From a virus (taxonomy: Duplodnaviria; Heunggongvirae; Uroviricota; Caudoviricetes), in the IMG/VR virus record IMGVR_UViG_2582580962_000008: a stretch of DNA of 4,436 nucleotides. One strand, 5' to 3'. Below, one piece after another: positions 633-4,436 of the stretch. The notes under the pieces were generated by a model. That model ran no database searches, was not told where the DNA came from, and worked only from the letters and a program-made list of their open reading frames with translations. The position numbers and the translations under genes are program-made. Every line of letters begins with the position of its first letter. Position 1 is the stretch's first letter.

Positions 633-1121
633 ATGAGTCTGATGAACGATGTACAGAAATTCATTGAAGCCCATCCGGGGTGTACTTCAGGTGACATTGC
701 GGATGCTTTTGCTGGTTACTCACGACAGTGCGTTCTGCAGTCAGCAAGCAAGTTACGTCAGAGTGGCCGTGTGGCTCACTGTTGTGAAGGGAAAACACGC
801 AGACATTTCCCACACCAGGCTGAGATATCGCAGGAGGAGAAACTGCAACCTGTTCTTGAAACCATACCTGTGCGCAATTTCTATGTCGGCACTAACGATC
901 CCCGGGTGATTTTGTGCCTGACCCGCCAGGCGGAAGAACTGGAGTCCAGGGGCTTATACCGTCGTGCTGCAACCGTGTGGATGGCGGCATTCCGTGAAAG
1001 CCACTCCCAGCCAGAACGAAACAATTTTCTGGCGCGTCGTGAGCGGTGCTTACGGAAAAGCAGAAAGCGCGCTGTAGCGGGTGATGAGTGGTATCTGTCA
1101 GGGAATTACGTGGGGGCTTAA
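633..1121 (+). CDS. PerC-like transcriptional regulator family protein with an N-terminal extension (about 162 aa)
   Basis: ATG at 633 follows a GGGGG RBS (623-627); the track start at 627 is a GTG inside that RBS. The C-terminal half carries a PerC/Pch-type motif (AEELESRGLYRRAATVWMAAF), matched from memory against EPEC PerC and EHEC Pch proteins. The stop TAA at 1119-1121 overlaps the next start (TAATG). Confidence 0.55.
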   Translation: MSLMNDVQKFIEAHPGCTSGDIADAFAGYSRQCVLQSASKLRQSGRVAHCCEGKTRRHFPHQAEISQEEKLQPVLETIPVRNFYVGTNDPRVILCLTRQAEELESRGLYRRAATVWMAAFRESHSQPERNNFLARRERCLRKSRKRAVAGDEWYLSGNYVGA

Positions 1122-1774
1122 TGAGTAATAAATATTGCCAGGCGCTGGTGGAACTACGGAACAAACCAGCCCATGAACTGAAGGAAGTGGGCGATCAGTG
1201 GCGCACGCCGGACAACATTTTCTGGGGAATTAACACCCTGTTTGGCCCGTTTGTTCTGGATCTGTTTACTGACGGTGATAACGCCAAATGTGCCGCGTAT
1301 TACACGGCGGAAGACAACGCGCTGGCACATGACTGGTCAGAACGTCTTGCGGAGCTTAAAGGTGCTGCCTTTGGTAATCCCCCGTACAGCCGCGCCAGTC
1401 AGCATGAGGGACAATACATCACCGGCATGCGTTACATCATGAAGCATGCCAGTGCCATGCGTGATAAAGGCGGGCGCTATGTTTTCCTGATCAAAGCGGC
1501 CACCAGCGAAGTGTGGTGGCCGGAAGATGCAGATCATATTGCTTTTATTCGCGGGCGTATTGGTTTTGAACTGCCAGCCTGGTTTATCCCGAAAGACGAA
1601 AAGCAGGTGCCAACAGGTGCTTTCTTCGCTGGTGCTATTGCTGTTTTCGACAAGACCTGGAAGGGAGCGGCAATCAGCTACATCGGGCGCGATGAACTTG
1701 AGGCATGTGGTGAGGCATTTCTGGCGCAGGTTCGCCAGCAGGCGGAAAAACTGGTCAGGGAGATGGCGGCATGA
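1121..1774 (+). CDS. Phage Dam-family DNA N6-adenine methyltransferase (orphan)
   Basis: ATG at 1121 is preceded by a GGGGG RBS (1112-1116) and overlaps the upstream stop; the track start at 1088 is an upstream GTG. The protein has the (D/N)PPY catalytic motif of N6-adenine methyltransferases (AAFGNPPYS) and an N-terminal WRTPDNIFWG...FVLDLFTDGDNAKC region typical of the phage Dam family. The stop overlaps the next start (ATGA at 1771-1774). Confidence 0.85.
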   Translation: MSNKYCQALVELRNKPAHELKEVGDQWRTPDNIFWGINTLFGPFVLDLFTDGDNAKCAAYYTAEDNALAHDWSERLAELKGAAFGNPPYSRASQHEGQYITGMRYIMKHASAMRDKGGRYVFLIKAATSEVWWPEDADHIAFIRGRIGFELPAWFIPKDEKQVPTGAFFAGAIAVFDKTWKGAAISYIGRDELEACGEAFLAQVRQQAEKLVREMAA

Positions 1775-2097
1775 CGACATTAACTCAATGCCAGCAGCAG
1801 GTGCTGGATATGCTGATTTCTTATCAGAAAGAACGTGGCTTCCCGCCAACCAATCAGGAGGTGGCAACCATGCTGGGATACCGTTCGGTGAATGCAGCGG
1901 TGGAGCATCTTCGCGCACTGGAGAAAAAAGGTGTCATCACGATAAAGCGTGGCGTGGCCCGGGGTATCACTCTTCATACCGCGGTGAAGGACGACGACAG
2001 CGAGGCGGTCGGGATTATCCGCGCCCTGCTTGCCGGTGAGGCAAACGCCAGGCTGCGTGCAGCCCACTGGTTACATGAGAGGGGCCTGAAAGTATGA
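1771..2097 (+). CDS. LexA-like protein consisting of the N-terminal winged-helix DNA-binding domain only (108 aa; no S24 peptidase domain)
   Basis: A GGGAG RBS (1758-1762) precedes the ATG. The protein aligns by eye over about 65 residues with the E. coli LexA N-terminus (LTxxQQxVxDxI...GxPPTxxExAxxLGxRSxNAAxEHLxALxKKGVIxIxxGxxRGIxL), including the RS-NAA-EHL recognition-helix region. It ends about 40 residues after the DNA-binding domain with a LexA hinge-like LLAGEANA segment and no Ser/Lys catalytic core. The stop overlaps the rusA start (ATGA). Confidence 0.85.
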   Translation: MTTLTQCQQQVLDMLISYQKERGFPPTNQEVATMLGYRSVNAAVEHLRALEKKGVITIKRGVARGITLHTAVKDDDSEAVGIIRALLAGEANARLRAAHWLHERGLKV

Positions 2098-2489
2098 AGC
2101 TAATACTGCCTTTTCCGCCCAGCGTGAACACGTACTGGCGACACCCCAACAAAGGGGCGTTTGCTGGTAAGAGCCTGATAAGCGCGGCGGGGCGAAAATT
2201 CCAGAGCGCGGCGTGTGCAGCAATAGTTGAGCAGTTACGTCGTCTGCCGAAACCAACGTCGGCACCTGCTTCAGTGGAGATCGTGTTGTTTCCTCCGGAT
2301 AACCGGATCCGCGATCTGGACAACTATAACAAGGCGCTGTTTGACGCCCTGACCCACGCGGGTGTGTGGGAAGACGACAGCCAGGTGAAAAGAATGCTGG
2401 TGGAGTGGGGACCGGTTATCCCGGAAGGGAAGGTCGAGATCACTATCAGTAAGTACGAAAAAGCGAGTTGCAAATTAGCAACTCGGTAA
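2094..2489 (+). CDS. rusA: RusA-family Holliday junction resolvase (crossover junction endodeoxyribonuclease)
   Basis: The N-terminal LPFPPSVNTYWRH matches the RusA LPWPPSxNxYYRH motif. The catalytic block RDLDNYNKALFDALTHAGVWEDDSQV corresponds to E. coli RusA D70/D72/K76/D91 ([28 protein letters not shown]). ATG at 2094 overlaps the upstream stop; TAA at 2487-2489. Confidence 0.9.
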   Translation: MKLILPFPPSVNTYWRHPNKGAFAGKSLISAAGRKFQSAACAAIVEQLRRLPKPTSAPASVEIVLFPPDNRIRDLDNYNKALFDALTHAGVWEDDSQVKRMLVEWGPVIPEGKVEITISKYEKASCKLATR

Positions 2490-2534
2490 CGGAATTGAGC
2501 AACACCCTAAATTTGGGTATTACCTCGTTAAAGA

Positions 2535-2554
2535 TACTGTATTTATGAACAGTG
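2535..2554. promoter_or_regulatory. LexA (SOS) box-like operator: TACTGTATTTATGAACAGTG
   Basis: CTGT-N8-ACAG with an AT-rich spacer, matching the E. coli SOS box consensus TACTGTATATATATACAGTA at 16 of 20 positions, with both CTGT/ACAG half-sites intact. This is the only CTGT-N8-ACAG in the window. It sits in the intergenic region 98 bp upstream of the KilA-N gene start and directly abuts a -35-like TTGATA. Confidence 0.6.
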
Positions 2555-2651: not shown

Positions 2652-3467
2652 ATGAATCAGTTGCTTGTAATTGATGGCGTTTCTGTGCGCCAGTACTTCG
2701 AATCTAACTACTGTCTTAACGACCTTCAGAAAGCTGCTCTTCTTGCCGCTGGTGAGAATCGCTCCTCCCGTTCGCTGGAAGTTCACGAGTTTATGCGTCG
2801 TCCTGAAACGAAGGCTCTTGTGGAATTATTGGAAGAAGAAACTACGGGAGATTCCCGTAGTATTCCTGTCATCACCATTCAGGGGCGCAATGGTGGGACG
2901 TATGTCTGTAAAGAGCTGGTCTATGCATATGCAATGTGGATCAGCCCGGCATTCAGCTTAAAAGTGATACGTACTTTTGATGCGCTTCATAATTCATCAC
3001 CAGAAGAAACCACATCCGACAAAATTAAATCCGGGGTCATTCTGCTTGAATCAGCAGCAAAGACTCTAAATCTGTCAAACTCCTCGAAACTTGGTGCATA
3101 CCAGAAATTATCAAAGGTAGCTGGTCTTCCTGAACTTATGCCGATCTATGCCATTGATGCACCTGCTGATGCGCCAGATGGTTCAAGCCGCCCTACGCTG
3201 TCGCTGAGTGCACTGCTGAAGCAGTATGGTATCCGCCTGACGGCTAATCAGGCATATCACCAGATGGCGAAGCTGGGGATCGTTGAACAACGCGAACGAT
3301 ACAGCCGTACCGCGATTAACAACATCAAAAAATTCTGGTCGCTGACAGCGAAAGGCTGCATGTTCGGCAAGAACATCACCAGTCCTGCAAATCCGCGCGA
3401 GACGCAGCCGCATTTCTTCGAATCCCGATTCCCTGAGCTGTTAAAGCTGCTCGATACCGTTCATTGA
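2652..3467 (+). CDS. KilA-N domain protein (antirepressor-like or Roi-like DNA-binding protein; C-terminal domain uncharacterised)
   Basis: ATG at 2652 follows a GGAG RBS (2642-2645) with a 6-nt spacer; the track start at 2640 is a GTG overlapping that RBS. The N-terminal domain has the KilA-N hallmark block GTYVCKELVYAYAMWISPAFSLKVI (family pattern GTWVHPxLAxxFAxWLSPxF) and the upstream YCLNDLQKAA segment. The stop TGA at 3465-3467 overlaps the RBS of the next gene. Confidence 0.8.
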   Translation: MNQLLVIDGVSVRQYFESNYCLNDLQKAALLAAGENRSSRSLEVHEFMRRPETKALVELLEEETTGDSRSIPVITIQGRNGGTYVCKELVYAYAMWISPAFSLKVIRTFDALHNSSPEETTSDKIKSGVILLESAAKTLNLSNSSKLGAYQKLSKVAGLPELMPIYAIDAPADAPDGSSRPTLSLSALLKQYGIRLTANQAYHQMAKLGIVEQRERYSRTAINNIKKFWSLTAKGCMFGKNITSPANPRETQPHFFESRFPELLKLLDTVH

Positions 3468-3474
3468 GGTGACC

Positions 3475-4436
3475 GTGAGAGCACTACTGACCCCTGAAAT
3501 TGCCCCGCGTATGGGGATCGTATTGTTCAGACCAGGTTCAGAGCTGATGCCCCTGTTTATGCAGGGGCGTGTCCTGCTGGAGCCTGAGCCGGAGCGTTAT
3601 TCATCTTTCGCCAGTGGTGCCGTTCCGGCGGCATCACAACCGCTGGCGGATGATCCTGCCGTTCGGGCCGTGTTCCGCAATGAGGCAGTGATCCGTCGTG
3701 CTGGTGGCGTGGAATGTCTTGAAAGCTGGTTACTTCGTGAAAAAGGCTGCCAGTGGCCTCATTCCGACTGGCACAGCGAGAACATGACCACAATGCGACA
3801 CGCTCCGGGTGCAATCCGTCTGTGCTGGCACTGCGATAATCAGCTGCGCGATCAGTTCACGGAACGGCTGGAATCAATGGCAACGGATAACTGTGCCCGC
3901 TGGGTGTTGTCTGTTGTGCGTCGGGATCTCGGTTTTGATGACAGTCACGTTGTGACAATGCCGGAACTGTGCTGGTGGCTGATTCGTAATGATCTGGCGG
4001 ATGCCTTACCGGAAAGTGCAGCCCGTAAGGCCCTGAGATTACCGAAGCCTGTTGTGCCGTCTGTCACCCGGGAAAGTGACCTTGTGCCTTCGGTTACTGC
4101 CACCAGCATCATCCAGGATAAGGCGAAAAAGGTGCTGGCGCTGAAAGTGGATCCGGAGTCGCCGGAGTCTTTTATGTTACGCCCAAAACGTCGTCGCTGG
4201 GTTAATGAAAAGTACACGCGCTGGGTTAAGACGCAGCCGTGTGCATGTTGTGGTAAGCCAGCCGACGATCCTCATCACCTGATTGGTCATGGTCAGGGTG
4301 GAATGGGTACAAAAGCGCATGACCTTTTTGTGTTGCCTTTGTGCAGAAAACACCATGACGAACTGCATGCGGATACCGTGGCATTTGAAGAGAAGTATGG
4401 TTCCCAACTGGAGCTGATATTTCGTTTTATCGATCG
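3475..4436 (+). CDS. DUF968-like prophage protein with a C-terminal Cys/His (HNH-like or zinc-binding) cluster; the 3' end is outside the window
   Basis: An uninterrupted frame-1 ORF runs from GTG at 3475 (GAGG RBS at 3466-3469, 5-nt spacer) to the window end, about 320 codons. It is absent from the track because no stop falls within the window. The C-terminal region CACCGKPADDPHHLIGHGQGGMGTKAHDLFVLPLCRKHHDELH is the conserved DUF968-type Cys/His block as I recall it (K-12 Qin YdfU is the family member I have in mind). The start codon choice (3469, 3475 or ATG 3511) is uncertain. Confidence 0.8.
   Translation, partial: MRALLTPEIAPRMGIVLFRPGSELMPLFMQGRVLLEPEPERYSSFASGAVPAASQPLADDPAVRAVFRNEAVIRRAGGVECLESWLLREKGCQWPHSDWHSENMTTMRHAPGAIRLCWHCDNQLRDQFTERLESMATDNCARWVLSVVRRDLGFDDSHVVTMPELCWWLIRNDLADALPESAARKALRLPKPVVPSVTRESDLVPSVTATSIIQDKAKKVLALKVDPESPESFMLRPKRRRWVNEKYTRWVKTQPCACCGKPADDPHHLIGHGQGGMGTKAHDLFVLPLCRKHHDELHADTVAFEEKYGSQLELIFRFID

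Follow-up and report, generated by a model that had tools for sequence, protein, structure and literature searches.

A LexA DNA-binding head with no protease domain in lambdoid prophages: a candidate RecA-insensitive LexA surrogate

The LexA repressor of Escherichia coli dimerizes and contacts RecA* through its C-terminal domain, and the operator-bound protein also has an extensive head-to-head interface (PMC3159453). A phage-encoded protein that keeps only the head was described for GIL01, a tectivirus of Bacillus thuringiensis, in which the truncated LexA homologue gp6 activates the late promoter P3. The gp6 protein uses K38 to bind its own palindrome, GaCACAnnTGTGaC, a non-LexA operator at -43.5, and host LexA represses the same promoter (PMC6182141). 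The present analysis concerns a 108-residue LexA-like protein encoded at positions 1771-2097 of a 4,436-nucleotide stretch of DNA (the window) from the Caudoviricetes record IMGVR_UViG_2582580962_000008 of IMG/VR. The protein consists of a LexA-type winged-helix head, a flexible linker and a conserved two-helix module that stands where LexA has its S24 autocleavage domain. An earlier note had taken the gene, from the letters alone, to be a phage-encoded LexA paralog, and its phage origin is confirmed by its place in the nin (early-right) region of a lambdoid E. coli prophage. We give a probability of roughly 0.4 to the reading that the product stands in for LexA at CTGT-type operators and is insensitive to RecA.

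The closest functional model is the N-terminal fragment of LexA itself (residues 1-84), likewise head-only. E. coli reportedly destroys this fragment via ClpXP for full SOS induction (Neher et al. 2003, Genes Dev), and the free fragment is reported to retain operator binding (Neher et al. 2003; Kim and Little 1992). By implication, a head-only protein that is stable would be able to act as a repressor in vivo. The LexA fragment ends in ...VAA, which is recognised by ClpX, and is short-lived, whereas the phage protein ends in ...GLKV and has an additional helical module that is conserved.

Domain content and conservation of the LexA-like protein

The open reading frame is exactly as the earlier note had it, running on the plus strand from ATG through 108 codons to TGA. 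The encoded protein divides into the following parts, where pLDDT is the predicted local distance difference test score of two AlphaFold2 models:

1771..2097, + strand: 108-residue, LexA-head-only coding sequence, ATG start and TGA stop included (PF01726, PHROG 362)
1771..1974, + strand: winged helix-turn-helix domain, residues 1-68, with helices at 6-22, 28-35 and 40-52 and strands at 56-58 and 66-68 (AlphaFold2, Foldseek)
1885..1926, + strand: recognition-helix region, residues 39-52, SVNAAVEHLRALEK, in which S39, N41, A42 and E45 are identical to E. coli LexA
1975..1992, + strand: flexible linker, residues 69-74 (HTAVKD), pLDDT below 50 at residues 71-75 in both models, of variable length in the family
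1993..2094, + strand: C-terminal two-helix module (helices 75-88 and 93-102) and last residues, replacing the S24 domain, pLDDT 91-93

In a Pfam search of the 108-residue protein, residues 1-65 matched the full 65-position profile of LexA_DNA_bind (PF01726; E=2.9e-19, 69 bits, cutoff 23.7), and Peptidase_S24 gave no match. Among PDB sequences, phmmer returned the E. coli LexA DNA-binding domain (1lea, E=6e-16) and full-length LexA as best matches. BLASTP aligned the protein to E. coli LexA at 43% identity over 91 residues, and an ungapped comparison with LexA residues 1-69 gave 35/69 identical positions (51%), the net charge being +4 in both heads. The two AlphaFold2 models (pLDDT 77.7 and 85.1) consist of the LexA winged helix, a disordered linker and two confident helices, and Foldseek superimposed the head model on the LexA-DNA complex 3jso with a root-mean-square deviation of 1.5 Å over 67 columns, at 51% identity. 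The close likeness to the LexA N-terminal domain that had been claimed from the sequence is thus borne out by profile, homologue, identity and structure alike, and the phmmer and BLASTP alignments show that its pairing of RSVNAAVEHL with RSPNAAEEHL of LexA was correct. The absence of the autocleavage domain also held: Pfam reports no S24 domain, the protein ends at residue 108, and the NCBIfam lexA equivalog model TIGR00498 is aligned over positions 1-91 of 203, at 70.7 bits and below its cutoff of 110.95. A hidden Markov model (HMM) search and a monomer structure prediction had been suggested as checks, and they gave, respectively, LexA_DNA_bind without Peptidase_S24 and a LexA winged helix followed by a helical tail.

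Set beside E. coli LexA (1lea, 1jhh, 3jso), the phage protein shares the 51% identity at residues 1-69, the winged-helix fold and a flexible linker after the head, together with S39, N41, A42, E45, H46, K53 and the wing R64-G65-I66. It is without the Ala-Gly cleavage loop in its strand context, the Ser119/Lys156 S24 domain and the C-terminal-domain dimer interface; it has the 30-residue two-helix module instead, and E44, R28 and R34 are not kept.

Conservation of the reading head was counted over 123 distinct family sequences from 218 loci, in E. coli LexA numbering. S39, N41 and K53 are kept in 123/123, the wing R64-G65-I66 in 122/123, H46 in 121/123 and A42 in 118/123, and the window subfamily has RSVNAAVEHLR throughout, with E45 retained. 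The LexA-DNA structure and altered-specificity genetics reportedly identify S39, N41, A42 and E45 as the residues that read CTGT, and on this basis a CTGT-type half-site is the predicted target of the window protein. The near-invariance of S39, N41 and A42 across the aligned sequences favours CTGT-type recognition.

The segment LLAGEANA had been read as hinge-like and as a relic of VAAGEP around the Ala-Gly cleavage site of LexA, and this part of the earlier note was not supported. Weak HMM and BLAST alignments do continue beyond the head and bring an 'AGE' into register with the LexA cleavage site, but the segment falls in helix 75-88 at pLDDT above 90 and not in the strand-loop of LexA. The A88-G89 'AG' is present within that helix; it is not conserved in the family, and there is no catalytic domain to cleave it. 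The counterparts of LLAGEANA in relatives are LLTRKEN, LLSGGDM, MIDDQPG and LMADTPD, AGE occurring only in the window's own subfamily. Since the segment is helical and AGE is confined to one subfamily, the tail is read as a separate small helical module. The suggestion of a helix-like C-terminal tail fared better, for AlphaFold2 and the family alignments agree on a conserved, confidently helical module. The tail is recognisable in relatives down to about 40% identity, A97 and L101 being invariant in the family alignments, and its ratio of nonsynonymous to synonymous substitution rates (dN/dS) of 0.12-0.19 shows that it is constrained as well as the head. Tail-only searches of PDB sequences and Pfam gave no meaningful match. 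With no S24 domain and a tail that is conserved, helical and constrained, the protein therefore has a functional two-module design like that of LexA, namely head, flexible linker and second module. It is plausible, by analogy, that the tail offers an alternative oligomerisation surface.

The gene belongs to an established family. PHROG 362, a 106-position profile, matches residues 1-108 end to end (1-106/106, E=4.2e-59), close relatives have 104-108 residues, and this length recurs in hundreds of independent sequences. An exhaustive HMMER search added relatives of 106-135 residues at 40-52% identity that align through the tail, and pairwise dN/dS values of 0.05 in the window subfamily and 0.21 in a more diverse subfamily indicate purifying selection. 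A sequencing error or frameshift in a full-length lexA, which the earlier note had named as a way to be wrong, is excluded by the overlaps with dam and rusA, the full PHROG 362 match and the recurring length of 104-108 residues. A frameshift or pseudogene reading was likewise rejected on the end-to-end PHROG 362 match, the tail kept to about 40% identity and the dN/dS of 0.05-0.21.

The exact 108-residue protein is found on at least 1000 contigs, and the gene in 2233/5426 complete E. coli genomes. Fifty deposited phage genomes also carry it, among them SfV (orf42), SfIV, mEp460 (mEp460_046) and the Stx2c and Stx2k (Shiga toxin) converting phages. The annotated phage records match at 96-98% nucleotide identity, most have dam - lexA-like - rusA at the match, and their names for the product are "LexA-like protein", "LexA DNA binding domain protein" and "LexA family transcriptional regulator". 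A RefSeq homologue, WP_000210152.1 ('LexA family transcriptional regulator'), occupies the same position in locus L001. The novelty implied for the gene was overstated, given its existing LexA-like annotation in many phage records and in RefSeq; it is a member of a very common, already annotated prophage family and not a new kind of object. Relative to other PHROG 362 proteins the window copy shows no structural difference, and it is set apart by its SOS-box spacer (found in 16/78) and by IS421 upstream.

GIL01 gp6 is likewise phage-encoded, with the LexA DNA-binding domain only and no cleavage domain. It is expressed from an early operon, and boxes for host LexA are present in promoters of GIL01 as well. 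The two proteins nevertheless differ in most other respects. BLASTP of the phage protein against gp6 gave no alignment at E <= 100; gp6 has 66 residues and no C-terminal helical module, whereas the present protein has the extra tail; gp6 relies on K38, the equivalent of which is absent here, whereas the PHROG 362 family keeps the LexA-type S39/N41/A42; and GIL01 is a tectivirus, whereas the host phage here is lambdoid with a Q antiterminator. Lacking similarity, the two are therefore independent captures, in this case from a proteobacterial and not a Bacillus LexA. Free-standing LexA-head proteins are common in unrelated phages. Stand-alone LexA_DNA_bind proteins in BFVD (for example from Mycobacterium phage Wildcat, Tectiviridae and uncultured Caudovirales) have the same head fold in 65-150 residues and are 16-42% identical over the aligned head. 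Ten of the 11 BFVD matches with E <= 0.001 cover about 61-72 columns, that is, the head, at low root-mean-square deviation, and the two-helix tail is not evidently shared.

SOS boxes and gene order around the gene

Every gene of the window lies on the + strand. The features that surround the LexA-like gene are given below; SOS boxes here and elsewhere were scored with a position matrix built from 20 E. coli operators.

1-390: 3' end of the insertion sequence IS421 (IS4-family; transposase C-terminus 8-220)
409-630, + strand: 3' stump of an interrupted gene
627-1121, + strand: PerC-family transcriptional activator gene (Pch-like, yfdN-type), directly 5' of dam
1121..1774, + strand: phage Dam N6-adenine methyltransferase (PF05869 E=5e-45, TIGR01712 E=3e-76)
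1757..1763, + strand: putative Shine-Dalgarno-like AGGGAGA, 7 nt 5' of the LexA-like ATG and inside the end of dam, read by eye
2094..2489, + strand: RusA-family Holliday-junction resolvase (PF05866 E=6e-15, PHROG 34 E=6e-58)
between 2489 and 2652: rusA/KilA-N spacer, 162 nt
2495..2523, + strand: possible sigma-70 promoter TTGAGC-N17-TATTAC just 5' of the SOS box, weak, seen by eye and not called by the consensus scan
2535..2554: near-consensus SOS (LexA) box TACTGTATTTATGAACAGTG in the rusA/KilA-N intergenic region, exact CTGT-N8-ACAG, 20.6 bits; candidate target
2652..3467, + strand: KilA-N domain protein, first gene past the SOS box (PF04383 E=1.3e-15, PHROG 129 E=4e-109)
3475..4436, + strand: DUF968/HNH protein, running off the window (PF06147 E=1e-77, HNHc_6 E=4e-6)

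As read from the sequence, the dam stop overlaps the LexA-like start in the ATGA at 1771-1774 and the LexA-like stop overlaps the rusA start in the ATGA at 2094-2097; dam, the LexA-like gene and rusA are therefore held to be translationally coupled within one transcript. No site in the window other than the box at 2535-2554 reaches 9 bits, and the box lies 438 nt 3' of the LexA-like stop codon. From this position host LexA would directly control KilA-N, DUF968 and possibly the Q antiterminator.

Where relatives are intact, the block is flanked by the replication genes on one side and the Q antiterminator on the other, and it shares its strand with cro and the replication genes. An exact-protein look-up of divergent loci gave, in 8/8, the order [often DNA methyltransferase] - LexA-like - RusA - [KilA-N or Rha/ANT] - DUF968 - Q, the methyltransferases, present upstream in 5/8, being of several classes. 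Wider counts come from tblastn gene orders in 194 IMG/VR loci of three subfamilies (the window subfamily with 80, P0132 with 80 and P0137 with 34). RusA follows the gene in 80/80, 78/80 and 10/34 of these loci, respectively, and RusA as an obligatory partner was rejected on its absence from 24/34 P0137-group loci. Dam is upstream in 57/80 loci of the window subfamily. DUF968 is downstream in most of the 80 loci of the window subfamily, in 77/80 of P0132 and in 33/34 of P0137, which makes DUF968/HNH the most constant downstream companion across all three subfamilies, also where RusA is absent.

SOS boxes are far more frequent in related loci than chance predicts. At a threshold of 17 bits, 874 kb of these loci contain 64 boxes and 370 kb contain 42, against 2 and 0 in three-fold shuffles. 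In the P0137 subfamily, 25/32 distinct loci have 17-30-bit boxes at 440-1465 nt upstream of the LexA-like gene, and the box sequences vary from locus to locus. A DinI-like gene (PF06183, E=1e-23) starts the operon in 19/34 P0137 loci, and 8 loci of the group also have a separately boxed UmuD-like gene. DinI-like and UmuD-like proteins act on RecA filaments, and with such neighbours the P0137 neighbourhood is therefore themed on RecA/SOS modulation. This linkage to SOS boxes (25/32 loci), often with DinI-like and UmuD-like genes, is new here.

Individual loci give the arrangement. In L013 (5530-5961) and L016 (5530-5951) the box overlaps a promoter that comes after a terminator, and heads the unit phrog_1813 - LexA-like - (phrog_1212) - RusA - DUF968 - Q. 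In L127 (4837-5900) one box is 5' of the UmuD-like gene, which is followed by a terminator, and a second is 5' of DinI-like - phrog_1813 - LexA-like - phrog_1212 - DUF968. As judged from boxes and gene content, the truncated LexA is in at least one lineage a member of a putatively host-LexA-repressed, SOS-themed operon. In SfV, mEp460 and phiSTEC1575, on the other hand, the rusA-KilA-N gap is 20 nt and has no box. An SOS box as obligatory partner was rejected, since neither the P0132 group nor the majority of close relatives have one near the gene.

Other features of these loci can be listed beside the boxes. The called immunity repressor of L013 has helix-turn-helix domains only and no S24 domain, so that phrog_1813, a protein of 75-101 residues, could be a LexA-controlled antirepressor. 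SOS boxes of 25-26 bits lie inside annotated coding sequences of S24-type CI-like repressors, about 165-185 nt past the start codon, in L003 (mEp460, 31970-31989), L004 (phiSTEC1575, 7725-7744) and L015 (836-855). The strong SOS box TACTGTAAAAATAAACAGTG, or a close variant, stands at or just inside the annotated start of the DNA methylase gene after Q in L002 (SfV, 34170-34189), L003 (mEp460, 41021-41040) and L016 (8739-8758); TACTGTAAAAATAAACAGTG is the commonest box in the loci of the window subfamily, with 18 occurrences.

The proposed LexA surrogate and its alternatives

If the protein is a LexA surrogate, its winged-helix head would read CTGT-type (SOS-box-like) half-sites as LexA does, and the two-helix module on its flexible linker would replace the S24 domain as the oligomerisation element. 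The protein would be made from the early-right (nin) transcript or an SOS-induced one, coupled to dam and rusA, and would appear at prophage induction, which is when host LexA is cleaved. It would then occupy LexA-controlled promoters, including the SOS-box promoter that the phage has at 2535-2554, upstream of KilA-N/DUF968/Q, and probably those of host SOS genes. Since DNA damage could not free these promoters, the protein would serve to shut off the SOS circuit or feed back on it. The analysis establishes domain content, the lack of a protease, fold, conservation, purifying selection, gene context and the link to SOS boxes in related phages; which operator is read, whether the tail dimerises, when the gene is expressed and that it represses are inferred.

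Several observations weigh against a surrogate of this kind. The rusA/KilA-N box is at the same position in only 16/78 related loci, and about 4 kb around the gene are free of SOS boxes in the 80 P0132 loci; with the box in few relatives of the window and in none of P0132, linkage to SOS boxes is therefore not general. Boxes by the gene, moreover, show control by host LexA and not binding by the phage protein. In the head, E44 of LexA and the basic R28 and R34 are kept in 0/123 family sequences, and E45 is kept in 84/123, with A in 21 and L in 12 (33/123 together). The helix reads SSPNAVALHLR, with L at 45, in 14 P0137-group loci, all 14 of which have SOS boxes nearby. Given the substitution of E45 in part of the family, specificity may have drifted and affinity may differ. 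The tail helices lack strong amphipathicity by hydrophobic moment. GIL01 gp6, the only characterised truncated LexA of a phage, has a different operator and is an activator, and a literature search found no functional study of the enterobacterial family and no binding, dimerisation or expression data for it.

It is possible, if unlikely, that only the LexA fold has been kept and that the protein is a phage transcription factor with its own non-SOS operator, activating or repressing a phage promoter as GIL01 gp6 does. The gp6 precedent, a truncated LexA homologue on GaCACAnnTGTGaC that activates a late promoter (PMC6182141), speaks for such a role, as do the variation at helix positions 44 and 45, the loss of several basic residues of LexA, the P0132 subfamily with no SOS box nearby and the frequency of stand-alone LexA heads in unrelated phages. 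On the other hand, S39, N41 and A42 are invariant or nearly so and identical to LexA, and gp6 uses a different residue, K38. No recurrent alternative palindrome turned up, though no systematic motif search was made; the gene lies in an operon so compact that there is hardly any intergenic DNA next to it; and a Q antiterminator runs the late genes, so that an extra late activator is not obviously needed. A rather improbable alternative would make the protein no transcription factor at all, but an accessory DNA-binding subunit for RusA, DUF968/HNH or Dam, with the tail docking onto one of them. The overlapping start and stop codons with dam and rusA fit such a partnership, as do RusA downstream in 80/80 and 78/80 loci, DUF968/HNH downstream nearly everywhere even without RusA, DNA methyltransferases upstream in 5/8 divergent contexts and a tail without known homologue in Pfam or PDB sequences. 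However, the nin regions of lambdoid phages normally have a fixed gene order, which is no sign in itself that the products interact; 24/34 P0137-group loci have no RusA; and other phages have RusA and Dam homologues that work on their own. The LexA-type head, with its invariant base-contact residues, speaks instead for sequence-specific operator binding.

Still less probable is action by protein contact, as a decoy or poison that pairs with host LexA heads on DNA or titrates RecA*, and so perturbs SOS without repressing. The head-to-head interface of operator-bound LexA makes a mixed head pair conceivable (PMC3159453), and the neighbours in the sister subfamily are DinI-like and UmuD-like; but both dimerisation of LexA and its contact with RecA* go through the C-terminal domain (PMC3159453; PDB 8trg), which is wholly absent here. 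Very improbable indeed is a functionless protein, whether the decaying remnant of a full-length LexA- or CI-type repressor or the product of a sequencing frameshift. The HMM and BLAST alignments that extend weakly to 'AGE' at the LexA cleavage site, and the disruption of the window prophage by IS421, could be taken that way. However, length and tail are kept across subfamilies at 40-50% identity, dN/dS is 0.05 and 0.21 with the tail constrained too, the gene is present in 2233/5426 complete E. coli genomes and in the viable phages SfV and mEp460, and the DNA downstream is bona fide rusA and not S24 debris.

The surrogate hypothesis gains a concrete footing from the linkage to SOS boxes and to DinI-like and UmuD-like genes, and it bears on SOS dynamics in lysogens of Stx and other phages. 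If SOS boxes are bound, a large fraction of E. coli strains, including lysogens of Shiga-toxin phages, would carry a damage-blind LexA head. Such a head would be switched on in prophage induction, and could shape the length and strength of SOS after antibiotics, with possible effects on mutagenesis, filamentation, release of Stx and phage, and competition among co-resident prophages. It would also be the second independent phage capture of the host LexA head after GIL01 gp6, with the reading residues apparently kept. If another operator or a partner is involved, the protein would be an ordinary small phage regulator. A broader and somewhat doubtful proposal is that the gene forms a phage-borne SOS shut-off or feedback cassette in about 40% of E. 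coli genomes, including those with Stx phages. An uncleavable surrogate would here re-impose or rewire SOS-box control after the loss of LexA, being itself SOS-induced with DinI-like and UmuD-like genes in sister phages. The cassette could set when the late genes (Q) are expressed, reduce mutagenesis and filamentation of the host, and keep rival prophages from being induced through LexA.

Upstream region and further observations

IS421 sits in the early-right operon of the prophage and cuts short the upstream gene, leaving the stump at 409-630. E. coli OkiPb strains have the identical IS421 junction, with the insertion sequence directly 3' of the integrase. The OkiPb prophage is therefore defective, its immunity and replication region having been lost, and PR cannot be what drives the LexA-like gene in it. 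In relatives without dam, the PerC-family gene directly adjoins the LexA-like gene. At the very end of rusA, at 2464-2485, is a hairpin with a perfect 8-bp stem, CGAGTTGC-AAATTA-GCAACTCG; its T-run is on the minus strand only, so that it looks like a terminator for leftward transcription and not one for the operon. The DUF968 protein has a very weak match to the family of the P1 Ref RecA-dependent nuclease (PF16786, E=0.074).

An Rfam scan of the window matched no RNA family, and PADLOC gave the LexA-like protein no link to a defence system and a weak winged-helix match only. A scan of viral sequences with P0189 found no loci, and a scan of genome contigs found 7 loci only, mostly true LexA genes. 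Cluster members named 'N-6-adenine-methyltransferase' proved to be ordinary Dam proteins and not fusions, their membership being an artefact of the clustering. Two tandem LexA_DNA_bind-like stretches are present in P0131, P0133, P0148, P0151, P0152 and P0154, proteins of 140-350 residues, an architecture unlike both that of LexA and that of the PHROG 362-type family.

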